Shown: in pieces, positions 1 to 12,735 of the stretch | Layout: each line of letters begins with the position of its first letter | Numbering within the stretch: the stretch's first letter is position 1 | The notes under the pieces: model-generated | What the model was told of the DNA's origin: nothing | Databases searched by the model: none | Seen by the model: only the letters and a program-made list of their open reading frames with translations | Position numbers and translations under genes: made by a program | Assembly: GCA_023138735.1 (NCBI GenBank) | Contig: JAGLOY010000085.1 | Span: 6,657-70,656 of the forward strand | Length of the DNA: 64,000 nucleotides | Source: Candidatus Aegiribacteria sp. | Lineage (GTDB): Bacteria > Fermentibacterota > Fermentibacteria > Fermentibacterales > JCC-6 | Direction: 5' to 3'

Positions 1-349
1 CATATTCATTTAAATCTGTGATACTACGCCTAGTGTCTTTAAATAGAACGTCCATTTCAGTTCCGAGAAATGCCATTGGATATCTAGCCCAAAACACGAA
101 TGAAGGACCAGAAATCTTCTCCTTAATCAGCTCCAATATTGGGACATGTTCATATGGCTTGTATCCAAATACGAATGCAAGATAAGGAAATGATGACTTG
201 ATTGGAGTTTCAAGCTGATTAATAAGGATATCACCATGCTCTTCAAGTGCTTTCGGTATATCGACTGCACGAGCACAAATAGGTGTACACTCAAATGGGA
301 TCTCAATCAGCACTGATCCTTGAATACGAGAAGTTGAAATGTTTTTCAT
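1..349 (-). CDS. hypothetical protein, partial (N-terminal 116 aa; continues past left window edge)
   Basis: I translated the minus strand by hand from ATG at 349-347 (MKNISTSRIQGSVLIEIPFECTPICARAVDIPKALEEHGD...). The frame stays open to base 1. It is absent from the ORF track because no stop lies inside the window. No recognisable motif. Confidence 0.5.
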   Translation of the reverse strand, partial: MKNISTSRIQGSVLIEIPFECTPICARAVDIPKALEEHGDILINQLETPIKSSFPYLAFVFGYKPYEHVPILELIKEKISGPSFVFWARYPMAFLGTEMDVLFKDTRRSITDLNEY

Positions 350-432
350 AGTAGAATAATACTATTCCCAATATGGTAATTATGCAAGTTTCAGAATATG
401 TATATCTATATTGACTGTTCAGATTGATAAGA

Positions 433-455
433 TAGACACACCTATGGTGTGTCTA
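433..455. repeat. perfect 10-bp inverted repeat (tagacacacc-tat-ggtgtgtcta) in a 0.7-kb non-coding AT-rich spacer
   Basis: Read directly from the sequence. It is flanked by the direct-repeat words ctatattga(c/t)tg and aagatag. Confidence 0.6.
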
Positions 456-919
456 TATTGATTGAGCAGTAAGATAGTATATATCCAATAATAGCAACTA
501 TATAATGGATATATGATATGTATCTACATTAAGACTAGCCTTGTATCTTAGGTTGTACGATAGGCACTATACGCAAGGTAACCAATAAATTAGCCCCGTA
601 TGGTGTTATATGTCATTTGCAACTGAGAAAATCTACCATCAAGATAGACTCACATCAAGTGAAGTAATGAATTTCTACTCAAAATCATGAAGCATGATCA
701 TTATTCAGCGTATCAAGATATCGAAATTAATCACTAATAACATATAATGTGTTATGCAGTGGTGGACGCTTTTAGAACTCATTCAATAACTGAAAATATT
801 ACCTGAACTCTATACTTTCGAACCTCTGGAATGTACGCTGTGTAAGTCGGTTAAAAACAAGGTTTCCAGTCAATATTCTAGCTTTGTGTAGTATTTATAT
901 TTGATGGCCTATCATTACT

Positions 920-949
920 TTGACATTGCTATGTATGACTCTGTATCAT
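920..949 (+). promoter_or_regulatory. candidate sigma70-type promoter for the 1057 gene, overlapped by two 14-nt direct repeats
   Basis: TTGACA (920-925), an 18-nt spacer, then TATCAT (944-949). Direct repeats tatcattact(t/c)tga at 910-923 and 944-957 overlap the -35 and -10 hexamers. AT-rich context raises the false-positive risk. Confidence 0.35.
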
Positions 950-1056
950 TACTCTGATCCGGGATTGTAGTGTAATCGGTTATAAGAACCTCTTCAGACT
1001 TCTCTACCTATTACTTTGAATCCAAATAGCGCTCAATAATCATATGGAGGTGGAGC

Positions 1057-2433
1057 ATGAGCCAAAGACTGACCAAACTCATTGGAATATCATATTCTGA
1101 GTTCACAAGCATTGCTTCTGAACACAAAGAAATCCACCTTAGGCCAGCTCGACTTATTCCTATGCACAAGCCTGGTGATGAAATGGCTCTTACATCCATC
1201 TTCCTCAGTTCTCTGAAGTTAATCAAGGAATTCAGACGAGAGATATCATCAGCTGTCAGTATGAGCTCATCAGGAAGCATTCATCTTTTCACTGAAGTAA
1301 CATTCGAAAAATACCCAGATAAGCGAGTAGATGGTTTGATGCTTGTCGTTAGGGGTAACAAGATTAGTGATGCTGCCCTCTTTGAGCTGAAGAATAAGAA
1401 CAATGACCTTGATGATTCTCAGATACAGGATTACATTGGGATTGCGAAGTACTTCGCTATTCCTAGGATCATTACAGTATCGAATCAGTTTGTTTCAAAA
1501 CCAACTCAATCACCCTTGAACGTCAAACTCCCAAAGGATGTTTCTCTATATCACCTATCCTGGTCATACATACTCACCATTGCCCGACTACTTCTCTTTG
1601 ATAACAACATGAATATCAACGAACCAGATCAGGTAGAGATCATGGAGGAAGTAGTTAATTACCTTGAGCATAAGCAGTCAGGTGTCTGTGGCTTTACGAG
1701 CATGAAACCAGGATGGAAGGATGTCGTTCAGAAAACCAATGCTGGAGCTCCACTAAGATTCGATGCAAATGATGTTGATGAAGCTGTGTGCAGTTGGCTT
1801 CAGGAAGAGAAGGACATGGCTCTGATCCTGAGCAGAAGGCTTGGACAATTTGTTGAGTCTGGTGAGAAGAAGTTTAAAACAGATCTGCAGGGACGAATCG
1901 ATAATGAGAAGAAAGCCCTTATTGAGCAGAAATATCTCTTATCAACTCTGTCAGTTGACGGTGCTGTATCGAGTATCAGTGTACGAGCAAATTTAGATCG
2001 ACGGAATATTGTGATGTCAGTTTCCCTTAATCCCCCTCAAGACCGGAAAACAAGAGGTCAAATTAGCTGGCTCCGGTATCAACTTAAACGATGTCAAACG
2101 AAGAATCCAGATCTCTTTGAATCGCTTGCAAAGGAAATCAGGATAGGCATTGGTATCAAGTATTCCAGTAAATGTGAGAGGGTTTCAATAGAAGCTCTTG
2201 AAGATGTTTGGTTGAAACTAAAGGATTCAGTTATCAAAAGCTTCACGATTCTCCAGGTGAAGGATCTTGGGAGAAAATTCAGTAGCAGGACAAGCTTTAT
2301 CACAACTATTGAGAGTATGCTCCTCGATTATTATGAAGGAATCGTACAGCATTTAAAAAGGTGGGAGAAGCCTGCTCCGAAAATATCTAACAAAACGCTT
2401 CTAACTGATGAGGATAACCTCGAAGAATTATAG
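1057..2433 (+). CDS. hypothetical protein with N-terminal PD-(D/E)xK (restriction-endonuclease-like) motif set
   Basis: GGAGG RBS 7 nt upstream of the ATG. Motifs GDE...RVDGLMLVV-x13-ALFELKNK...QIQDY fit the E...D-x(n)-ExK nuclease core. The ~280-aa C-terminal region is unrecognised. Confidence 0.6.
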   Translation: MSQRLTKLIGISYSEFTSIASEHKEIHLRPARLIPMHKPGDEMALTSIFLSSLKLIKEFRREISSAVSMSSSGSIHLFTEVTFEKYPDKRVDGLMLVVRGNKISDAALFELKNKNNDLDDSQIQDYIGIAKYFAIPRIITVSNQFVSKPTQSPLNVKLPKDVSLYHLSWSYILTIARLLLFDNNMNINEPDQVEIMEEVVNYLEHKQSGVCGFTSMKPGWKDVVQKTNAGAPLRFDANDVDEAVCSWLQEEKDMALILSRRLGQFVESGEKKFKTDLQGRIDNEKKALIEQKYLLSTLSVDGAVSSISVRANLDRRNIVMSVSLNPPQDRKTRGQISWLRYQLKRCQTKNPDLFESLAKEIRIGIGIKYSSKCERVSIEALEDVWLKLKDSVIKSFTILQVKDLGRKFSSRTSFITTIESMLLDYYEGIVQHLKRWEKPAPKISNKTLLTDEDNLEEL

Positions 2434-2805
2434 CCTTTCTATACTCTATTGAACTTAACTACCTCGTGTTGAAGGTATTTCGAACACTGGTTCTGTTTGC
2501 TGATTAACAGCATGCTAGTAAGTGCGCCTACTAGTTGAATGAGGAAATTGGATATTGAGGGGATTCGGAATGCCTAACGGATTTACTGGCCATACTCCAA
2601 ATTGCGATTATTGGCATACAAGTATTCCCAGTTAGGTTTTTCACTATATTGCAATGTGAATTGTTTTCAGCACATTCAGATTCTAGACGGAGTGTTAGGC
2701 AAATCGATTCATCCGAAGTGAAGATAGTGTTTGATGTGAAGTGGAGCGTAAAACAATGTATTTCAATATCCGAGTGTTCCCTCTAAACATCCATGGAATT
2801 TCTCG

Positions 2806-3339
2806 ATGAACAATGATTTTGATGCATTCGCAGAGGATTTACTTGTTGAACGCAATCCCAGACCACTTTTCATAGTTGGCGCAGCAAAGGTCGATAATCT
2901 ACTTTTCCAGACTCTCACCAAATACCTATTGGATAAGACAGCGAAATCGAAAAATCATGATGAATTGCTTGAGGGAGATAGACCACTTTCGACTTTCAGT
3001 GCGCGTATTAAATTGTCTTACAGGTTAGGCTTAATTGACTCTTCACTATTCAAGACTCTTGAAAAGTTACGAACTCTCCGGAATATATGCGCTCATTCCA
3101 TTGATTTCAGAGTATCTAAGAGTCCTGTGCGTGAACACATTAAGGAGCTTCGGAAACAACTAGGCAGTCGGCAATCATATCACCTTACTAGAAAGCGTTA
3201 TTTCGACAATGAAGAACTATCCGGCATCGAAGAACTGCAGTGCTTGCTTTTAGTCCTATGTGTTCTCCTTGAAGCTATCCGGAGAAAAACAAGGAGAACG
3301 AGAGCAGGTCTTCACACCCGTACAATCTCATCTAAGTAG
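2806..3339 (+). CDS. MtlR-like / DUF4145-like HEPN domain protein
   Basis: LSTFSARIKLSYRLGLIDSSLF...LRTLRNICAHS. The helix pair resembles the MtlR family, and RNICAH fits the Rx4H HEPN signature. Confidence 0.7.
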   Translation: MNNDFDAFAEDLLVERNPRPLFIVGAAKVDNLLFQTLTKYLLDKTAKSKNHDELLEGDRPLSTFSARIKLSYRLGLIDSSLFKTLEKLRTLRNICAHSIDFRVSKSPVREHIKELRKQLGSRQSYHLTRKRYFDNEELSGIEELQCLLLVLCVLLEAIRRKTRRTRAGLHTRTISSK

Positions 3340-3355
3340 TAGATCGGAGGAATAA

Positions 3356-4465
3356 ATGGTACAAGAATCAGCTTCTATCCTTAGAGTACCCGTTGTAAGG
3401 TCTAACATTCTCGGTGTTAAAGTATACAGAGGCTTTGCGAAAGTATGTGATTTAGCGGATATTTCCAATGCGGATATTTACGATCAAAAGAATAATCCTC
3501 TGGGAACACAGCGCGATTTGAGTCCTGCTCACGCACGAGAAGCATATGAATATGTAAAAACAAAAGATTTTGGTTTTTGGCCAGAAGTATTTCTTTGTGT
3601 ACGTAATAGAAAGTGTATAACATATCATGTGTTGTCAGATGAATTAGATGATCTTGGTATACTTGAAATTGATGTTGCTGCAGCAACTTCAGGGGATACC
3701 ATCGCCATATCCCGTGTTGATGGGAACCATAGACTTCACTATGGAGATGGAGTGGAAAAGGGTTACGTGCGAATAACTAAACTTGTCTCATTTTGCCTAG
3801 CATATGACCTAAATCGCGAAGAAGAGATCCAACTATTCAAGGACATTAACAAGAACCAAAAAGCGATGAATACGAGTCACCTTGATGGCATTGAAGTAAG
3901 ATTGACTTCGGAAGATGAACTCAAGAAAAGAAAACCTGAATTGTATATTGCTCAGCGCCTTCATAGGGATCCAACGAGTCCACTTCATGATCGAATATAC
4001 GAAGGTGGCAAGAAACCCGTTGGAGTTGACATCCCGCTTCGTGGATTGAAGTCAGGTATTCAATACATGCTTTCTCGATCAACACAGCTACCGAGGTTAC
4101 TTGATTCTGAAGCGCAGTATAGGGTAATCCGCAATTACTTTTCGTCAGTCAAGGAATGGCAACCGAAGGCTTGGTCAAATCCAAAGGAGTATATCTTGCT
4201 TCGAGGTGCAGGGCTGTGGGCTGTTTGTTTCCTTGGAGCGCATGTTATTGATCGAGCACTGGTTCAAGATAAGTTCGATATTGAGTATATGCTAGGCATT
4301 TTAAGATCAGGGAGGGAGTGGGATTGGGGGCGTAAAGGGGATTTTGTTGGTTTCAGCGGAAGAGGTGGAGCACTGGAGATCAGTAATCGAATCGCCCGCA
4401 AGCTTGAAGATGAGAACAAGATGTCCACTGATGACTTGTTTAGAAGTATTATGTCCTCCGATTAG
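3356..4465 (+). CDS. DGQHR-domain (DndB/DpdB-like, ParB/Srx fold) protein
   Basis: GGAGG RBS 5 nt upstream, and only 17 nt after the HEPN gene. Motifs GTQRDLSPAHAREAYEYV and ISRVDGNHRLHYG (a DGQHR variant). Confidence 0.75.
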   Translation: MVQESASILRVPVVRSNILGVKVYRGFAKVCDLADISNADIYDQKNNPLGTQRDLSPAHAREAYEYVKTKDFGFWPEVFLCVRNRKCITYHVLSDELDDLGILEIDVAAATSGDTIAISRVDGNHRLHYGDGVEKGYVRITKLVSFCLAYDLNREEEIQLFKDINKNQKAMNTSHLDGIEVRLTSEDELKKRKPELYIAQRLHRDPTSPLHDRIYEGGKKPVGVDIPLRGLKSGIQYMLSRSTQLPRLLDSEAQYRVIRNYFSSVKEWQPKAWSNPKEYILLRGAGLWAVCFLGAHVIDRALVQDKFDIEYMLGILRSGREWDWGRKGDFVGFSGRGGALEISNRIARKLEDENKMSTDDLFRSIMSSD

Positions 4466-5030
4466 ATACCGGAACACTTACGTTGCGGGTTTCATCAGGA
4501 CCAAGAGGGTGAAGATGCTGAATATTTATCACATAAAGAGCTTGGAATACTTGATGAAGATCACGAACGAGGATGGAGAGCTACAATGAGGTACGTCCCC
4601 ACACCGCTCTGAATGGCTTACTGGAGTCTATCTATCAGGAGTAATCACACAGGACACTGGCAAACCTTTGAGTGTATTAGTTGATTGAAAAGCGCACATA
4701 CATTGTTTCACTAAATACGGCCACTCCCATTACATTGAGGGCAAGTACGCCCTGCTGGACCTAGCATCATAGATTCCTTGATGAGCTCATATGTTGCGGA
4801 TTCGATCATACCTATTTTCAATCGAAGTCTTAGCCCTGTAAGTAGGGTGCCTTTACTGTAGATAGTGATGTAATTTACTAACAATAATTCGATTGATATG
4901 TAATCTATCAGAAACGCTATTTAAGGACAAAACAGTTAGTAGCATGATAATACCAATATTAGATGAGATAATCGATTCTGAGTGGTTTATGGTGCTTCAG
5001 CAACTGTTGAGATTCTTGTGCGTTATCTGA

Positions 5031-6113
5031 TCATAGCGATAGAATATCTCGAATTATAAGATAAGTATAGATGAAGTATCTCTCAGCCTCTTCGCGGGAG
5101 TATATCTCAGAATGAGAACCCTTTTGTGCAGCATGGAAGATTGCATCAAGTCTGTTCCCAAGATACTCAAGAGATGATCCAACGATTTCAATGAATCGGT
5201 TTGAGGAACTTCGATCCTCAACGTAGCACATTATGCGATTAATGTAATTCTCCGGACCAATCGCAATCGATTTTCCATCAGAAGAGGTGCGATAACCTCT
5301 TTCAGGAGGATAAACCTTATCAGCTAACATCTGGAGTAATCTTCGCATTGAGTGGACTGCGTTAGACCAATGTTCTCGGTTATCAATTTCGAGATTCTCG
5401 AGTATTGCTATGAGTTTTGGAATCATCCCTGGGATACACTCTCTGATCAACTGATCTGCAGAAAAGAATATGTGCCAAAGTGTATCGTTTATGAGTAGTT
5501 GTGTGTGTATTTCATTGTTAATAATCACTTCATTAGACACCATTTCAAGGACATACTCTCTGGCCGAATATGTGCCTAAAGTCACATCAACAATTTCATC
5601 TGGTATATAGATTTCCCAAGAATTATCCTTTACAATCCTAATTGACCATCCAGTCATAATCTCCGCAATGTGCAGAATTTCATTTAACTGAATTAATGGG
5701 CAATGTGGATCATCCTCGAAATTACCTGGATTGACTGATGGATTCTCAAGATTTTCCTTGTAAACAATTGAAGCAACTTCAACAAGACGGACTGCTGCTG
5801 CAAGAAGGTTTTCCCAGTTATCTAAGCAGAATAATCCAAGAATGGTCGGTTTTATTAGAGCTCTGCCCGATCTATTCTCTCCAGGACTCCTATTGCATTG
5901 CTCAATTAACCTTGGATCCGTCTTAAGTAATTTTTCAACATATGGTCGATCCTTTACTCTAAGAATGTACTCTTTCCTGGAAATATAATCGGTGTTTTCA
6001 AGCCAATATTGCCAAGCAATTTCAACAGCATTTCTCTCAGTATCTGTTAAGAACTTTCTGATCTGATCCAGTTTCTCACAAGTGGGTTCAATTTCCTTAT
6101 TTATCATTTTCAT
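5031..6113 (-). CDS. hypothetical protein; C-terminal region with possible HEPN-type Rx5H motif
   Basis: 360-aa ORF. LEYLGNRLDAIFHAAQKGSHS (R-x5-H) sits in a helical C-terminal third. No other motif recognised. Confidence 0.5.
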   Translation of the reverse strand: MKMINKEIEPTCEKLDQIRKFLTDTERNAVEIAWQYWLENTDYISRKEYILRVKDRPYVEKLLKTDPRLIEQCNRSPGENRSGRALIKPTILGLFCLDNWENLLAAAVRLVEVASIVYKENLENPSVNPGNFEDDPHCPLIQLNEILHIAEIMTGWSIRIVKDNSWEIYIPDEIVDVTLGTYSAREYVLEMVSNEVIINNEIHTQLLINDTLWHIFFSADQLIRECIPGMIPKLIAILENLEIDNREHWSNAVHSMRRLLQMLADKVYPPERGYRTSSDGKSIAIGPENYINRIMCYVEDRSSSNRFIEIVGSSLEYLGNRLDAIFHAAQKGSHSEIYSREEAERYFIYTYLIIRDILSL

Positions 6114-6146
6114 CCTTGTTGTTAATTATAACCTTCATTAGTATTC

Positions 6147-6160
6147 TAAGAATATATTCT
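6147..6160. promoter_or_regulatory. 14-bp perfect palindrome aagaatatattctt in a divergent intergenic region
   Basis: Read directly. It lies between the start codons at 6113 (-) and 6238 (+). AT-rich palindromes can arise by chance. Confidence 0.25.
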
Positions 6161-6237
6161 TCACAAGTCTATCTCGTCTAATCAATTATAGATAGCACTA
6201 CATTAAAAGAATACTTCTCGATAACGTTTGGACACTA

Positions 6238-8439
6238 ATGGGTGCAAAGAGAATCAAACCATCAGACTATAATCAACTCGCTTCCTTAAGGGACTTCAAA
6301 TGGATTGGTCCATTTCCTAGAACGACAAAGATTAAAACTACTTGGGAATGCGAAGCGGGGCATCAATGGGAGCAGCACTATAATGCAATTCAACAAGGTA
6401 GAGGTTGTCCACATTGCGCTGGATTAGTACCGAAAAACAAGGATGATTATGAACTCCTTGCTAGAGAACGTGGATTTAAATGGCTCGGTCCTTTTCCTAA
6501 AAGTGCTCATGCAAAAACCGAGTGGCGTTGTCCTGATGGACATACCTGGTATGCAACATATAGTAAGATCCGAATGGGAAGAGGTTGTCCGGTCTGTGCT
6601 GGGCATATGCGTAAAACTCCGAGAGAATATCACGAACTTGCTAAATCCCTTGGCTTACAATGGATTGGTACAGAGGTGCAGAACACGAACACATGTACTC
6701 GATGGAAATGTCCCTGTGGATTTGAATGGGAAGCAACATTCAAGAGTATTCGTGTTGGAGCTGGTTGTCCTGATTGCACTCAGAAAAGACTTTCAGATGA
6801 AAAACGAATAAAACCTGATCAATACACTCAGCTTGCAGAGTATCGAGGAATAATATGGCTTGGTCCTGAAGTACTATCTACAAGTGAGAAAACAAAATGG
6901 AAATGCAAGCAAGGACATACTTTTGAATCTCCATATAACTCAATTCAGGGAGGTCATGGTTGTCCAATCTGCGCAGGGAACCTTCCCAAAACTCTTGAAG
7001 ATTATCACAAACTTGCGAAGGATTGCTCTCTTGAGTGGTTAGGACCTAGTTCAGAGAATACGAGAACGAAGACTAGATGGCGATGCAAGAATGGTCATGT
7101 ATGGAAAGGATCATATGGAAGTGTTCTTAGGAGTCGAGGCTGTCCACTGTGTGCTATAAAGAGAGCAGCTGCAGCTCGACGATTCAAAAATAAAGAATAT
7201 CATGCGTTGGCTAAGGAAAGAGGATACAAGTGGCTTGGTCCTGAAGTCCTGAACACTCAATCAAAGACACGATGGTTATGTCCAAACGGACATGCAATTG
7301 AGACTACTTACTCTCATTTGCAGCAAGGAGGGGGTTGCGTAATTTGTTTAGGACTTGAGCGAAAGACACCAGATGATTTTAAAGCCCTAGCAGAAGTGCG
7401 CGGCTTTTTGTGGCTAGGTCCGGTAGTTCCTAATGTTCACACAAAGACTCAGTGGAAATGTTCTCTTGGGCATATTTGGGAAACCTCATTTAGCTCGATT
7501 CAACAAGGGCATGGATGTCACAAATGTGGAATTGAAAAAAGAACTGCTTTGAGACGAAGAAAACCTATTGATTACAAACACCTCGCTTCTGAACATGAGC
7601 TGAAATGGTTGGGACCAACTGTAAAAAGTACTGGCACTAAGACAGCTTGGGAATGCGCAGAAGGGCATATATGGGATGCACCATATAGCATGATAAGTGG
7701 TGGTCACGGTTGTCCTTACTGTGCTGGATTAGCTCCAAAGATAAAAGCAGACTATAAAAAACTAGCAAGAGATAAAGGTTTTGAATGGATAGGTGAGTAT
7801 CCTAGTAGAGTGAAGCTTAAAACTAGATGGCGCTGTCAAAATGGACACGAATGGGATGCACCGTATGCAAATCTTGATAATGGTTATGGTTGCCCACATT
7901 GTGCTCAACGTGCACCAAAAAAACCTGAGGATTTTAGGACCTTAGCAGAAAGTAGAGGGTTTACTTGGCAAGGTCCAATTGTTAGGGGAAATAGTGCTAA
8001 AACAGAATGGATGTGTCCTGAAGGACATACATGGAAAGCAAACTATAACAGTATCGACCAGGGAAGTGGGTGTCCAATCTGCCAGGATATGGTTAATGGT
8101 GTTCGAGTTTCCAACCTTCAGCGGAAATTATGTAGAACACTTAATGGAAAGCTCAATCTTAAGGTTGGAAGATACAGTATTGATATAGCCATTATTAGAG
8201 AAGGGAATCTGATCGCAATTGAGTATGATGGCTGGTATTGGCATGGGAATAAGACTGATCAAGACAATAGAAGAGATAGGAAGCTTATTGAAAAGGGTTG
8301 GCGTGTCCTCAGAGTAAAATCTAATCAAAGCCTTCCGACAAGAAACCAGCTTAATTCAGCAATAGATTCCCTTATTGAAGGTGAGGATTATGCTGAAATC
8401 ATATTGGACGATTGGGGAGTCGGAGCTATACTACATTAA
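6238..8439 (+). CDS. protein with ten tandem zinc-ribbon repeats (DUF4379-like) fused to a C-terminal Vsr/DUF559-type PD-(D/E)xK endonuclease domain
   Basis: Ten units of the form (D/E)Y..LA...G..WLGP.....KT.W.C..GH.W...Y..I..G.GCP.C. The tail RYSIDIAIIREGNLIAIEYDGWYWH...DNRRDRKLIEKGWRVLRVKS matches the DUF559/Vsr core. Confidence 0.8.
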   Translation: MGAKRIKPSDYNQLASLRDFKWIGPFPRTTKIKTTWECEAGHQWEQHYNAIQQGRGCPHCAGLVPKNKDDYELLARERGFKWLGPFPKSAHAKTEWRCPDGHTWYATYSKIRMGRGCPVCAGHMRKTPREYHELAKSLGLQWIGTEVQNTNTCTRWKCPCGFEWEATFKSIRVGAGCPDCTQKRLSDEKRIKPDQYTQLAEYRGIIWLGPEVLSTSEKTKWKCKQGHTFESPYNSIQGGHGCPICAGNLPKTLEDYHKLAKDCSLEWLGPSSENTRTKTRWRCKNGHVWKGSYGSVLRSRGCPLCAIKRAAAARRFKNKEYHALAKERGYKWLGPEVLNTQSKTRWLCPNGHAIETTYSHLQQGGGCVICLGLERKTPDDFKALAEVRGFLWLGPVVPNVHTKTQWKCSLGHIWETSFSSIQQGHGCHKCGIEKRTALRRRKPIDYKHLASEHELKWLGPTVKSTGTKTAWECAEGHIWDAPYSMISGGHGCPYCAGLAPKIKADYKKLARDKGFEWIGEYPSRVKLKTRWRCQNGHEWDAPYANLDNGYGCPHCAQRAPKKPEDFRTLAESRGFTWQGPIVRGNSAKTEWMCPEGHTWKANYNSIDQGSGCPICQDMVNGVRVSNLQRKLCRTLNGKLNLKVGRYSIDIAIIREGNLIAIEYDGWYWHGNKTDQDNRRDRKLIEKGWRVLRVKSNQSLPTRNQLNSAIDSLIEGEDYAEIILDDWGVGAILH
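6265..8088 (+). repeat. in-frame coding tandem repeat array, 10 units of about 60-65 codons
   Basis: I counted ten GCPxC-type knuckles in the translation. The units are diverged at nucleotide level. Long (65-aa) and short (60-aa) units alternate in units 2-7. Confidence 0.8.
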
Positions 8440-8604
8440 GCTATGTTACTTGCGTATGGAATATGATAAGTGCTGAAAGAATCGAATATTCAAAGCTATT
8501 ATGAGTGAAATCCAGGTGATCGATTAGTGAATGTTCAACGGTTCACTGTGATATTGTTTGATAGCCATTCTTGAAGAAATCCTGAATCTTGAAAGGATAT
8601 ATCA

Positions 8605-10470
8605 TTGAGAACGAACCATAATAATTCAGTTAGAGACTATCTGATACACTATTTATCTTTAGAGAATCCGGGATTTGCAGTATTGCTTAAGGGGCAATGG
8701 GGTATTGGTAAAACATACTTCATAAAAAACATGCTTGATAGTCTAGAAGATTCGACAAAGTATTTGTATATCAGTCTATATGGTATTCTTTCATATGAAG
8801 AAATAGCGCTAGAGATGTTTCGGCAATTACATCCAGTTCTATCTTCAAAGGGAATGGTCACTGCAGGAAAATTCGGCCAGGTTATTATGCAGGCTGTTTT
8901 GAAAGTAGATGTTGTTGAGAAAAAACTATGGAAGAGTAAGTCAAACTCAATCCCAAAGTACATGATGGATTCGGGTCGTCTATTGGTGTTTGATGATCTT
9001 GAGAGATGTTCGATACCACTGATGGATATACTTGGGTACATCAATCAATACGTAGAATGTCAAGGATGCAATGTGCTAATAATTGCAAATGAGGAAGAAA
9101 TTGTTGATCGAGAAAAGGCAAGAAATACGAATGGTTGTGCAAGTGAGTATCGAAGAATTAAGGAAAAGATTATTGGTAAAACCTTCTTAATTCATCCGAA
9201 TACAAGTGAAGCTCTTGAAGCGTTTATTGAAAGTATCAAATCCAAGCAGGTTAGGGACATGTACGAAAGAAGTATTGATTCTATAAGAATGGTCTTTAAT
9301 GATTCGGATCATAACAATTTGCGGTTGCTTAAACATGCGTTACTTGATTTCGAAAGACTGTATCTTTGCTTAAATGCAGAATTACAGAATAATGAAAAGT
9401 TATCAACTCACCTTTTAGAAGTACTGATGGTGTTATCATTTGAATACAATTCAGGTATCATTCAAGAGAAAAATATACTTGAATTTCGTTCATCATATAT
9501 GCTTAATAGGATTGGGCATAGCGACGATTTTGATGAAACTGAATATGGTAAAATAGTGATTAAATATTCGAGTGATAGCTTGCATGATATTCTTATGGAT
9601 GGTGATCTTTGGGCTGAGATAATTGTTCATAACATTATTGATCCAGATCGTATAATCGGAACTTTAGAAAAGAGTAAATACTATTCGCACGATTTACAGC
9701 CGAGTTGGGTAAAACTATGGAGTTATAATGATCTTATAGAGGAAGAATTTAGTAAATATCTTAACATCGTCATTAAGGAATTCACCGATATGGTGCACGA
9801 TGAAATTGGTGTTGTAAAGCATATCTCTTCTCTACTACTGAGGTTAGCAGATATTGGTTTGAATCAACAACCCAAAGAAGAGATACTTAGCATATCGAAA
9901 GCTAACGTCGATCATCTGGCAGAAATTGGAAGGCTTATGTCTGAAAATAAGAATAGAATATTCGATGATGATGAGTCATGGGGAGGATTAGGATTCCTAG
10001 GCAGAAACTTAGAAGAGTTCAAGGAGCTATGTAAATATATTCACGAAGTGGAATCGGATGAGCAAAAAAGAAAATTACCTGGAGACGGAAAAGATCTCCT
10101 TGCGTTAATGACAGTAAATCCACAGCAATTCTATGATCACATTACGTTCGGAAATATTGGAGATGCTTTATATTATGAAATTCCGATACTAGCATACATT
10201 TCTGTAAAGGATTTCGTAAATTCGTTTATACAACTTAATCCAGAGATTCAAAGAAGAGTTATATATAGTTTGAAAAAGAGGTATAAATATCCAAATATCA
10301 ATAAAGAATTAAGATCAGAACAGAAATGGATATCAAGTGTATGCAATGAACTAATTAAGTATCGAGATTCCTTAGATGATGGTTTAACAAGACATAGACT
10401 TGAAGTTTTCACTATTCCGCAAATGCAGGAAGCAGAGGAATTACTAACATCATCATCAAGTGCGCTGTAG
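8605..10470 (+). CDS. KAP-family-like P-loop NTPase (no transmembrane insert)
   Basis: TTG start with an AAGGA RBS. Walker A GQWGIGKT, Walker B LLVFDDLER, and a long helical C-terminal region. No strongly hydrophobic segment lies between Walker A and B. Confidence 0.7.
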   Translation: MRTNHNNSVRDYLIHYLSLENPGFAVLLKGQWGIGKTYFIKNMLDSLEDSTKYLYISLYGILSYEEIALEMFRQLHPVLSSKGMVTAGKFGQVIMQAVLKVDVVEKKLWKSKSNSIPKYMMDSGRLLVFDDLERCSIPLMDILGYINQYVECQGCNVLIIANEEEIVDREKARNTNGCASEYRRIKEKIIGKTFLIHPNTSEALEAFIESIKSKQVRDMYERSIDSIRMVFNDSDHNNLRLLKHALLDFERLYLCLNAELQNNEKLSTHLLEVLMVLSFEYNSGIIQEKNILEFRSSYMLNRIGHSDDFDETEYGKIVIKYSSDSLHDILMDGDLWAEIIVHNIIDPDRIIGTLEKSKYYSHDLQPSWVKLWSYNDLIEEEFSKYLNIVIKEFTDMVHDEIGVVKHISSLLLRLADIGLNQQPKEEILSISKANVDHLAEIGRLMSENKNRIFDDDESWGGLGFLGRNLEEFKELCKYIHEVESDEQKRKLPGDGKDLLALMTVNPQQFYDHITFGNIGDALYYEIPILAYISVKDFVNSFIQLNPEIQRRVIYSLKKRYKYPNINKELRSEQKWISSVCNELIKYRDSLDDGLTRHRLEVFTIPQMQEAEELLTSSSSAL

Positions 10471-10694
10471 TTATTTGTTGATTAAGTACGGAGACATAGA
10501 TCAGGATCGACTTTATGCTATTGGAGCAATACGGGGAGGGAGAGGAATAGCCCTCCAGTTTGCAGCAAGGGACAACTTCTATCAAAGATTGCTTAATGAG
10601 TAATATCATAGACACTTTGAAGAAGAACTGGATTGAACGAAATAAGTGTTAAGTTGGATATCGAAAGTTGATGCCGTAAAGAAGGGAGTTATCC

Positions 10695-11267
10695 TTGCGA
10701 AAAGTCTTAAGTAAGGTTATTTCTCATCCTGTTATTTCTGGTCTTATTGTATTTGTCATTGGTCCTTCACTAATCGCTATCATTAAATGGGGATTTACAG
10801 CAGTAGTCAATTGGATATTTTCAATTCCGGAGTTGCTATTCTCAACCATAATCTTACCCATATGGTTATTCATCATACTTTTAATAACTTCAATTACTGG
10901 TGTTGTCTTTGGTTTACACTCATTGTTGAGCAAGAGGAATAGAATAATTGAAGATTACTTATGGGATACTTTCTTTGGAGTTACTTGGAGGTGGTACCAG
11001 AGTGATCTATATGGTTTGATAAATCTTAAGGCGTTTTGTCCTGAACAAGATTGCGATATGGAGCTTAAATTCATTCGCAAGATGATAACAGCTTCTGGCA
11101 GACCACTCACCTATTATTCCTGCCCTAATTGTGGGAAAAAAGATCTACTATTTGATGGAACTTTGAGCGACCTTAAAAAACATATTGAGAAATTAATTGA
11201 GAGAAATATTCGAGAAATAGAGAACGGGATTTCCATAAACAAGATAAGAGTGAGAGAAGCATTATAG
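10695..11267 (+). CDS. small membrane protein with C-terminal zinc ribbon
   Basis: TTG start preceded by GAAGGGAG. Residues ~10-75 form 2-3 hydrophobic helices (VISGLIVFVIGPSLIAII, LLFSTIILPIWLFIILLITSITGVVFGL). These are followed by CPEQDC...CPNCGKK. Confidence 0.6.
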   Translation: MRKVLSKVISHPVISGLIVFVIGPSLIAIIKWGFTAVVNWIFSIPELLFSTIILPIWLFIILLITSITGVVFGLHSLLSKRNRIIEDYLWDTFFGVTWRWYQSDLYGLINLKAFCPEQDCDMELKFIRKMITASGRPLTYYSCPNCGKKDLLFDGTLSDLKKHIEKLIERNIREIENGISINKIRVREAL

Positions 11268-11293
11268 AGAGAAGTATTCTCAAAGGGAGGATT

Positions 11294-12187
11294 GTGCCAG
11301 ATCATATAAGCATGTGTACTAATTTCCTTGGATTAGTGGATACATTTGAAAATACTATAATGAACCCTAATAATACTATCATGCTTGAATTAGATAGATA
11401 TAAGATTACTATAAAGCAAGATAAAAATGTAGTTCGAAACCAACCAAGATATTTTCAGGATCGTACTGCTATAACCTCCAAAGTGATAGTACAAGGAGTA
11501 ACAGCAAGTGCAGTTCAGAATGCAAACCGTATTCGAGATCGTATTTTAGAACTGCTATCTTTCATATCAATGTCATATGTAATCCCTAGCATAGTTCAGT
11601 TCCCTCCGGGTACTAATATTGATAGCAATGTACCCAGAGGATATGCATGTTATTACAAACCAGTAATAGAGATAAGGGATGCGAAGATAGTCAAAGATTT
11701 TATAGAGCAAGTATGGACAAAATACAATAAGATATACCGTAGAAGGAAATTACATGAAGTAATGGAATATCTAGCGATATCTGATTTTCCCCACCAACCA
11801 ATTGAATCGAAACTAGTTTTAGTGATTGTAGCTCTAGAATTCTTGAAGACAACTTATGCTCATTCCAGTGGAATTCCATTTATTTCGGGCAGCTTTAGAA
11901 AAGTAAGTACACCCCCCAAGGCGAACATTAAGCGCGAACCAAAGTATTCTTTTGAAGACCTTCTTACGAAGATGCTAATGGATGCAGGAATGCCTAAGGG
12001 TATTAAGAGGATAATTAGACTGCGTAACGAGCTTTTCCATGCTGGGCTTACAAACATTTGCAGAGAATCGAAGATGAAACGATATAATAGAATTCACGAT
12101 ATCATTAGAGAGTATCTCTTACGGATAATGGAATACAAAGGAAATTACATCTCTTACTCGGATCCAGATTCTTTTAAGCATATATAA
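11294..12187 (+). CDS. HEPN-motif protein (Rx4H), otherwise uncharacterised
   Basis: GTG start 3 nt after a GGGAGG RBS, 27 nt after the preceding gene. C-terminal IIRLRNELFHAG matches the HEPN Rx4H signature. Confidence 0.6.
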   Translation: MPDHISMCTNFLGLVDTFENTIMNPNNTIMLELDRYKITIKQDKNVVRNQPRYFQDRTAITSKVIVQGVTASAVQNANRIRDRILELLSFISMSYVIPSIVQFPPGTNIDSNVPRGYACYYKPVIEIRDAKIVKDFIEQVWTKYNKIYRRRKLHEVMEYLAISDFPHQPIESKLVLVIVALEFLKTTYAHSSGIPFISGSFRKVSTPPKANIKREPKYSFEDLLTKMLMDAGMPKGIKRIIRLRNELFHAGLTNICRESKMKRYNRIHDIIREYLLRIMEYKGNYISYSDPDSFKHI

Positions 12188-12735
12188 TTTGTGATATTTG
12201 ACTCATTTAGGATTAGATAATACATGTCACTTCAATTCAGGCAAAAGAAAACTGACAAAGAGTTCAAGAAATAAAACGACAATACAGTTTCCCATTACAT
12301 TGGGGATGTAATAGTATGAATTCACGGGTATTTTGATACACACAGAGAACTGGGCTTAAGATGCTGAGATCTATATAATTACTCTACATTCAATGAATTT
12401 CACTAATATATCCTTACTAATATGCGTGAAGAACGACTGTATCTATAGCAACTCCATTGAATTACACAAATATCGTATTATGCTGCTCCAATTATATCCA
12501 GGTATGCTTCCGCCATCGATGATATCCACTCTACAAAAGGGTTCCAAATACGTTCAGTAAGGGGTACCAAAGTTCAGAGTTTAGAACTCAATCCCAGTAC
12601 TGGCAACGCTTCGAAATACTTCCATCACGGGGTCGCCTTTGACGATACGGGACCGCCTTTGTTATCATCACTATAAGTACCGGATCAACAAGCTGGAGCT
12701 TACCTGATAGGGCTGAAGCCGGAGGGAGGCTGTAA

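Follow-up and report, generated by a model that had tools for sequence, protein, structure and literature searches.

What do a gene for a small HEPN protein and an adjacent gene for a ParB-like protein of the DGQHR type do together, when none of the genes for Dnd or Dpd DNA modification stands beside them? The question is raised by positions 2806-4465 of a 64,000-nucleotide (nt) stretch of a Candidatus Aegiribacteria sp. genome (contig JAGLOY010000085.1), the whole of which we call the window. The two proteins, of 177 and 369 residues, are referred to here as HEPN177 and DGQHR369. We find that the pairing of the two families is essentially a near-obligate one and that the cassette has spread horizontally as a unit. 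Our preferred interpretation, which we hold with confidence a little better than even, is that the HEPN-DGQHR pair is a conflict module that is complete in two genes and moves horizontally, that it most likely acts against phage by abortive infection, and that it follows the domain logic of the PD-T4-2 system.

The pair and its parts are arranged in the window as follows.

2806-3339, forward strand: HEPN177 gene, an open reading frame (ORF) of 177 residues; all-helical HEPN protein of the MtlR fold, predicted ribonuclease (RNase) effector
3079-3096, forward strand: codons of the predicted Rx4H HEPN active-site motif, R92-N93-I-C-A96-H97; R92, N93, A96 and H97 are invariant in the alignment
3340-3355, forward strand: intergenic spacer of 16 nt, read from the sequence, with a GGAGG ribosome-binding site at 3346-3350
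3356-4465, forward strand: DGQHR369 gene, an ORF of 369 residues; DGQHR-domain (ParB/Srx-like) protein, predicted NTP-binding (nucleoside triphosphate-binding), DNA-binding sensor or regulator
3404-3880, forward strand: N-terminal ParB-like domain of DGQHR369, approximately residues 17-175, assigned from a Pfam DndB match to residues 30-174 and from the invariant motifs
3503-3514, forward strand: GTQR motif, residues 50-53 of DGQHR369, invariant
3719-3733, forward strand: DGNHR motif, residues 122-126 of DGQHR369, invariant
3836-3850, forward strand: FKDIN motif, residues 161-165 of DGQHR369, invariant
3911-4462, forward strand: C-terminal domain of DGQHR369, approximately residues 186-369, helical in a low-confidence model and highly conserved

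The junction between the genes reads TAG(3337-3339)-tagatcGGAGGaataa-ATG(3356). An earlier note on this DNA had described the two same-strand ORFs, and its lengths, coordinates and quoted peptides all agree with ours, as does the GGAGG ribosome-binding site that it had placed before the DGQHR369 gene; the spacing, which it had given as 17 nt, is off by one. Its description of the genes as translationally coupled stands as a statement of tight operonic spacing, which is conserved across phyla, and not as one of coupling as such. Promoter and terminator scans around the operon did no better than on shuffled sequence.

The evidence that carries the interpretation is the constancy of the pair across genomes. 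Genome loci whose DGQHR protein has at least 59% identity could be tested in 28 cases, and in every one of them the HEPN gene lies directly upstream of the DGQHR gene. They belong to Acidobacteriota, Nitrospirota, Desulfobacterota, Planctomycetota, Verrucomicrobiota, Bacteroidota, Balneolaceae, KSB1, Actinomycetes and Fermentibacterota, and the cassette as a whole is spread over more than 10 bacterial phyla. Among metagenome loci found with HEPN as the seed, the DGQHR gene is immediately 3' of the HEPN gene in 69 of the 71 that could be tested. One of the two exceptions, L219, retains a DGQHR remnant of about 45 codons after a HEPN gene whose Rx4H motif is intact. At the other, L287, the usual partner is not downstream of the HEPN homologue (40% identity; 2965-3645, forward strand), and a 391-residue protein with a canonical 'IIDGQHRL' is encoded convergently to it, 1.1 kb away (4789-5964, reverse strand). 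Of 35 loci, 34 have between -8 and +22 nt from the HEPN stop codon to the DGQHR start codon, most often 14; the commonest distance in the metagenome loci is 14-15. The survey of neighbourhoods for which the earlier note had called thus shows the pairing to be conserved elsewhere. A cultured strain, Paraflavitalea sp. CAU 1676, also carries it.

A side observation concerns a further locus, L040 (10001-11500), where the DGQHR frame ends after residue 245 and the sequence that comes next resembles a toxin-antitoxin (TA) system of the YefM/YoeB type, judged by eye from translated peptides.

In all-vs-all clustering of ORFs only three families recur, namely those of the DGQHR protein, of the short HEPN protein and of a second, 'long' partner to which we return below. 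No third gene is conserved with the pair, the other recurrent families being antisense shadow ORFs and sporadic housekeeping or restriction-modification (R-M) genes. The neighbours of the pair are heterogeneous and include RecA, UvrB, RF-1, tRNA synthetases, DnaG and DprA, with an occasional type II R-M, PIN or Toprim gene. Upstream of the pair in the window is a 458-residue ORF (1057-2433, forward strand) that the earlier note had taken for a PD-(D/E)xK gene and a possible member of the module. It was found, among the loci examined, on this contig only, and searches of Pfam, NCBIfam, PADLOC, PHROGs and the PDB matched it to nothing. We do not count it as part of the module, nor any other gene of the surrounding island, since none of them is co-conserved with the pair.

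The two genes have also diverged together. In a sample of 22 loci, which gives 231 locus pairs, the pairwise identities of the HEPN and DGQHR proteins correlate with r = 0.87, and the DGQHR protein is the better conserved partner in every one of the 231 pairs (mean identity 67%, against 46% for HEPN). Third-position identity at identical four-fold-type codons is 0.30, and hence saturated, and second-position identity is 0.82 in the DGQHR gene and 0.67 in the HEPN gene. Saturated third positions combined with conserved second positions point to long-term purifying selection on both genes rather than to recent spread. At 21 loci flanking sequence is available for comparison, and at 20 of these the cassette has a lower GC (guanine plus cytosine) content than its flanks; this AT-richer composition fits horizontal acquisition with partial amelioration. 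Plasmids carry DGQHR relatives of about 25% identity only, in an unrelated but conserved five-gene cluster seen on the alphaproteobacterial plasmids pNL1 of N. aromaticivorans (L048, 118850-119857) and p187_1 of Bradyrhizobium (L049); the order there is PIN-like, ATP-binding, DGQHR, radical SAM, ATP-binding, a context that is neither dnd nor dpd.

What kind of protein is the conserved partner? By its sequence profile DGQHR369 can be placed in the DGQHR domain family of NCBIfam, TIGR03187, whose model it matches at 99.7 bits (cutoff 58.85) over residues 17-297. Each of the motifs GTQR, DGNHR and FxDINxNQ is present in 120 of 120 homologues. DGNHR is the DGQHR-type signature with N in place of Q, and the motifs of DGQHR369 correspond to DUF262/DndB motifs I-III as described in PMC12065111. 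Pfam gives no match of the protein to PF03235/DUF262 or to DUF1524. By comparison with DndB-C and ParBDB (PMC12065111), the C-terminal domain is possibly ParBDB-like and DNA-binding.

DGQHR369 thus shares its domain family and motifs with DndB and DpdB, but it differs from both in falling below their equivalog cutoffs and in standing without dnd or dpd genes, at the window as at 37 related loci. We rejected it as a DndB on the grounds that it scores 41.6 against the DndB equivalog TIGR04172 (cutoff 450) and 24.8 against Pfam DndB PF14072 (cutoff 29.1) and that dndCDE or dndA are not adjacent. As a DpdB it fares no better, with 35.9 bits against the equivalog NF041060 (cutoff 300), a weak match to the PADLOC DpdB model (1.8e-11) and no tgt-like (dpdA) neighbour. 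Scans with Pfam, PADLOC and NCBIfam found no desulfurase, DndC/D/E, tgt or helicase family in the window island or in the 6.6 kb of the same contig to its left, which we covered from a public metagenome. Nor does any Dnd or Dpd family recur among the 267 genes within 4.5 kb of the pair at the 37 non-redundant related loci. The earlier note had held that the pair is without dnd or dpd partners, while allowing that they might lie just beyond the left window edge; they are absent from the island and from the 6.6-kb flank, and they do not recur at the related loci.

HEPN177 can be assigned, by profile and by model, to the HEPN superfamily and within it to the MtlR-like family PF05068, which it matches at 27.9 bits (cutoff 25.2); DUF4145, Abi_2 and HepT-like models of Pfam match more weakly, and there is no Pfam match to RiboL-PSP or MAE_28990. 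Its family profile finds the MtlR crystal structure 6kcr with E = 1.7e-6. The AlphaFold model, with a predicted local distance difference test (pLDDT) score of 83.6, has eight helices, and its nearest folds in Foldseek are MtlR and YggD, at template modelling (TM) scores of 0.6-0.67, followed by HepS, the range over all three being 0.5-0.67. The RNxxAH residues are kept in 120 of 120 homologues, whereas the Rx4-6H motif has been lost in a large fraction of MtlR-family members (Anantharaman et al. 2013). The conserved motif would mark HEPN177 as a HEPN protein of the active RNase type, with catalysis predicted from the sequence. Its match to phrog_22031, a family without functional annotation (E = 5e-8), means that phage-encoded relatives of this type exist.

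Two other identities for HEPN177 were considered and rejected. It is not the mannitol repressor proper, scoring 31 bits against NCBIfam MltR NF008234 (cutoff 149), and no mannitol genes were found near the window pair or among the neighbours of related loci. It is also not a HEPN-MNT (type VII) toxin; the HepT models give 12.7 against a cutoff of 60 and 13.9 against 27, and the gene beside it encodes a DGQHR protein where an MNT nucleotidyltransferase would be expected.

The earlier note's proposal of a two-gene module that joins a ParB-like protein to a HEPN protein is therefore supported. Against it would have counted, by that note's own account, dnd or dpd genes just beyond the left edge, a pairing peculiar to this genome, or motifs that profiles do not support; each was looked for, and none was found. 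Both proteins are above curated cutoffs, and the short motifs, at 120 of 120 each, are not chance occurrences. What does not hold is the novelty that the note had implied for the pairing, because two validated anti-phage systems, PD-T4-2 and PD-lambda-5, already have this architecture of ParB-like and HEPN.

PD-T4-2, from E. coli ECOR65, is a two-gene system of about 1.5 kb described as 'DUF262, HEPN' (Vassallo et al. 2022, PMC9519451), and deletion of it in the native strain restores plaquing by T4 (Vassallo et al. 2022). By HHpred, PD-T4-2A matches DUF262 (99.7%) and DndB (96.7%), and PD-T4-2B matches HEPN_RiboL-PSP (97.8%), MAE_28990 (96.9%) and MtlR (87.2%) (PMC9519451). In both systems a ParB-like gene is adjacent to a small HEPN gene. 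In contrast to PD-T4-2A, which is of the DUF262 type, the ParB-like protein of the window is of the DGQHR/TIGR03187 type; its HEPN protein is of the MtlR type first, where PD-T4-2B is of the RiboL-PSP type; and the hosts of the window family belong to environmental phyla rather than to E. coli. The gene order, with HEPN first in the window, is apparently reversed, the order in PD-T4-2 being taken from the A/B naming and not from coordinates. From models and published domain matches, we conclude that the HEPN-DGQHR pair is probably an undescribed relative of PD-T4-2.

PD-lambda-5, described as 'ParB/HEPN, methyltransferase', is likewise a validated anti-phage system of E. coli (Vassallo et al. 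2022, PMC9519451), and fusions and operons of HEPN with ParB were catalogued by Anantharaman et al. 2013. These resemble the window pair in combining ParB-like and HEPN domains; they do so in a defence context and with a DNA methyltransferase, which is echoed by methylase adjacency to the pair at five loci. In PD-lambda-5, however, ParB and HEPN are fused and the methyltransferase is integral, whereas the window pair consists of separate genes and a methylase is missing at the window and at most loci. We found no paper describing the HEPN-DGQHR family. It is not a categorically new system but, as we read it, a variant among the defence pairs of a ParB-like and a HEPN protein that are already known.

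A further aspect of the family is that the gene beside the ParB-like protein changes as one moves outward from DGQHR369. At 22 loci, among them some of Alphaproteobacteria, Chloroflexota and Omnitrophota, the DGQHR relative has 45-60% identity and the same tightly spaced upstream position is taken by a different protein of about 295 residues; this long-partner form occurs in the cultured strains Bradyrhizobium sp. Ghvi and Aurantimonas marianensis LRZ36. All 46 of 46 homologues of the partner are annotated 'hypothetical', and its invariant residues are D181, E187, Y226 and the series R229-S-x2-V-H234-G (RSxxVHG), a second Rx4H motif. Pfam gives a single weak HEPN_Apea match in 40 members, PDB profile searches came back empty, and PADLOC gave nothing; on the motif we hypothesize that this partner, too, is a HEPN protein. 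At about 32% identity the DGQHR relatives have an overlapping downstream HNH endonuclease. At 25-39% identity, 11 loci (L186, L188-L193, L195, L198, L200 and L205) have a small downstream protein of 150-190 residues, at a gap of -7 to +46 nt, that belongs to no Pfam family and carries a PD..E-x-K-like motif of the form 'PD..(x)n..E-V-K'. A Dam-type (D12) methylase lies upstream of the DGNHR-clade gene at two of these (L189 and L192), and the arrangement could be a version of this theme that resembles R-M. Still other relatives have as neighbours an uncharacterised 170-residue protein, N6_N4 methylases or, downstream at L201, a radical SAM enzyme. Across these loci it is the ParB-like protein that stays constant, while the nuclease-like gene next to it is exchanged.

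Several better-known systems help to place this arrangement. In GmrSD, BrxU and SspE, DUF262 is an NTPase sensor of modified DNA that gates a fused nuclease (PMC12065111). They resemble the window pair in having a ParB-like NTPase domain with QR, DGxxR and FxxxN motifs, and the 32%-identity relatives of DGQHR369 do pair with an HNH nuclease; they differ in being single polypeptides with a DUF1524 His-Me DNase, whereas in the window a HEPN protein, encoded by its own gene, is the effector and a predicted RNase. For Menshen (NsnABC), NsnA has been proposed to be a ParB-DUF262 and ParBDB sensor for polymorphic effectors, often RNases (PMC12065111). The proposed logic of a sensor and an RNase effector is alike, but Menshen needs an ABC-ATPase, NsnB, between the two, and no ATPase is conserved beside the window pair. 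HepS, a solo HEPN Abi protein of the Gifsy-1 prophage, is an anticodon nuclease that is latent and shows no toxicity when overexpressed. Like HEPN177 it is small and all-helical and has the canonical Rx4H motif, and it is the defence protein whose fold is closest to the HEPN177 model, with sequence similarity that is marginal (E = 0.31). HepS acts alone and senses a phage tail-tip protein directly, in contrast to HEPN177, which is essentially always found with a DGQHR partner.

How might such a pair work? We suggest that DGQHR369, with a ParB/Srx-like NTP-binding domain followed by a helical C-terminal domain, would be a sensor or switch that depends on nucleotide, works probably on DNA and holds the HEPN177 RNase latent. 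On sensing an invader, DGQHR369 would free or activate HEPN177, and active HEPN177 would then cut RNA (tRNA, by analogy with HepS), so that the infected cell would be arrested. We thus infer for the pair RNase activity, NTPase activity, DNA sensing, a physical interaction and a defence phenotype. In favour of a role in defence, the pair lies in a low-GC island near a serine recombinase and a KAP NTPase that matches PDC-S49.

A number of observations pull the other way. Many loci hold the pair among housekeeping genes (RecA, UvrB, RF-1, DnaG, DprA) and not in obvious defence islands, and the mean column identity of the DGQHR protein, 81% over 30 homologues from many phyla, is unusual for genes in an arms race. 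Searches of phage genomes and viral contigs did not turn up the pair. The PADLOC models for comparable defence systems, including PD-T4-2, PD-lambda-5, Dazbog, Menshen and GmrSD, matched neither window protein at E <= 0.1. The HEPN identity of the 295-residue partner is unconfirmed, hhalign comparison with the short HEPN protein giving probabilities of 0.3% and 0.2%. Finally, the structure model of DGQHR369 is poor (pLDDT 61.8, predicted TM score 0.43) and confirms neither the ParB fold nor the C-terminal domain. Foldseek returned nothing significant for it, with ParB-like PadC appearing at E = 2.1, and a profile search of PDB sequences found nothing. Because model, fold search and PDB search gave nothing usable, the ParB fold of DGQHR369 is a prediction from the family profiles.

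We considered how else the same locus might be explained. In a classical TA pair, HEPN177 would be a constitutive RNase toxin and DGQHR369 the antitoxin that neutralises it, either by binding or through a covalent modification that depends on NTP, possibly with DndB-like autoregulation of the operon, and the cassette would be kept by selfish maintenance rather than for defence. Such a pair would be expected to look much as this one does: HEPN proteins are common as TA toxins (Anantharaman et al. 2013), DndB has been reported to be an ATP-modulated, DNA-binding autoregulator (PMC12065111), and the cassette is small, tightly spaced and moves horizontally as a unit, often alone among housekeeping genes. 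Intact HEPN genes nevertheless stand beside truncated DGQHR genes at L040 (cut at residue 245) and L219 (about 45 residues left), where a constitutive toxin would be unlikely to survive, allowing that an assembly error in a metagenome-assembled genome is possible. The putative antitoxin is, moreover, the more conserved partner in 231 of 231 pairs (67% against 46%), the reverse of the usual TA pattern. The ParB-like protein also pairs with several unrelated nucleases, as expected of a sensor or regulator, and the structurally similar HepS is non-toxic when overexpressed. The bias in conservation, the exchange of partners, the loci with truncated DGQHR genes and the latency of HepS make a TA pair less likely than a sensor with a latent effector, and we judge it unlikely, while giving it some weight.

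The pair might instead be an accessory of DNA modification or restriction, with the DGQHR protein reading modification such as methylation, in a type IV-like or back-up arm of an R-M system whose effector targets RNA. Type II R-M genes abut the pair at five loci (L002, 1359-1991; L004, 2668-3735; L011, 8723-9424; L030, 2196-2693; L033, 5698-7134); they encode an MT-A70 methylase, an N6_N4 methylase or a BglII-like restriction endonuclease, lie on the same strand as the pair and come as close as gaps of -3 to 36 nt. For this reason a link to R-M or to the sensing of modification is possible, and BamHI-type endonucleases among the wider neighbours, the Dam or N6_N4 methylases that adjoin divergent members of the clade, the methyltransferase of PD-lambda-5 and the suggestion that the DUF262 of Dazbog recognises methylated DNA all lean in the same direction. 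The adjacency is nevertheless confined to 5 of 37 loci, apart from a few further R-M genes that lie in the wider neighbourhoods; the island of the window lacks a methylase, and at L008 and similar loci the pair is alone among metabolic genes, so that we regard this explanation as distinctly doubtful. A regulatory pair without any role in defence, which would control host genes through a non-catalytic, MtlR-like regulator and a transcription factor of the DndB kind, draws on the best Pfam and structural matches of HEPN177, the mannitol repressor MtlR and YggD, and on the description of DndB as a transcriptional regulator. It is very improbable in view of an Rx4H motif that is invariant here, unlike in a large fraction of the MtlR family, the score against the NCBIfam MltR subfamily (31, cutoff 149), the horizontal acquisition of the cassette and its surroundings, which vary from locus to locus and hold no mannitol or other conserved target operon.

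Returning to the preferred reading, of a conflict module with a ParB-like sensor and a HEPN effector, a broader version of it can be imagined, to which we give little credence at present. The DGNHR-clade ParB-like protein would be a general, exchangeable 'DNA-state reader' that senses invading or modified DNA on behalf of unrelated effectors (two different Rx4H proteins, HNH and PD-ExK-like proteins) and that, where the effector is HEPN, would convert DNA sensing into RNA cleavage. One possible route would be covalent control of HEPN by NTP-dependent phosphorylation or NMPylation, considered here because the Srx/ParB fold can catalyse phosphotransfer. If true, this would give ParB-like defence proteins a mode of regulation that has yet to be described for them, and under the same idea of a reader of DNA state the 295-residue partner would be a new, unannotated HEPN family.

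The surroundings of the pair in the window are those of an acquired island, as indicated by a GC content of 35-43% in the first ~12.5 kb, against about 50% in the remainder. The 6.6-kb left flank contains a large serine recombinase, a 171-residue ORF and MacB/FtsX ABC transporter genes. The recombinase (575 residues, with Resolvase, Recombinase and Zn ribbon domains; L001, 4765-6994), just left of the window, and the 171-residue ORF form the left boundary of the low-GC island (window 1-12500), and a 395-residue ORF that overlaps the recombinase 3' end may be a disrupted target gene. The island as found in the window has no match in E. coli genomes, so that the host is not E. coli; a core RND pump gene with 91-93% identity to those of Ca. 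Fermentibacteria/Aegiribacteria metagenome-assembled genomes marks it as an uncultured bacterium of Fermentibacterota. Among the further genes of the island are the following.

6238-8439, forward strand: protein of 733 residues in which a DUF4379 treble-clef zinc finger is repeated nine times and the C-terminal domain is an MTES_1575/DUF559 (Vsr-like) endonuclease; not co-conserved with the HEPN-DGQHR pair
8605-10470, forward strand: 621-residue KAP-family P-loop NTPase with a near end-to-end PADLOC match to PDC-S49 (624 bits); a candidate for defence that shares the island with the pair but is distinct from it
11294-12187, forward strand: 297-residue ORF with 'RLRNELFHAG', an Rx4H-type motif; no family match apart from a faint YopA_C match given by the source database; by its motif it may be a second HEPN-like protein of the island

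The HEPN-DGQHR pair has implications for how such genes are read and studied. The annotation 'DGQHR domain-containing protein' should not be taken as evidence of Dnd or Dpd DNA modification, and current defence-finder models overlook this common cassette of soil and sediment phyla. ParB-like proteins of the DUF262 and DGQHR types recur throughout defence, in GmrSD, SspE, Menshen, Dazbog, PD-T4-2, Dnd and Dpd, yet no mechanism is known by which they would pass a signal to an effector encoded separately, PD-T4-2 itself included. Because the pair is minimal, conserved and widespread, exchanges its partners and is present in cultured strains, it offers good material for work, both structural and biochemical, on how a ParB-like protein is coupled to a nuclease.

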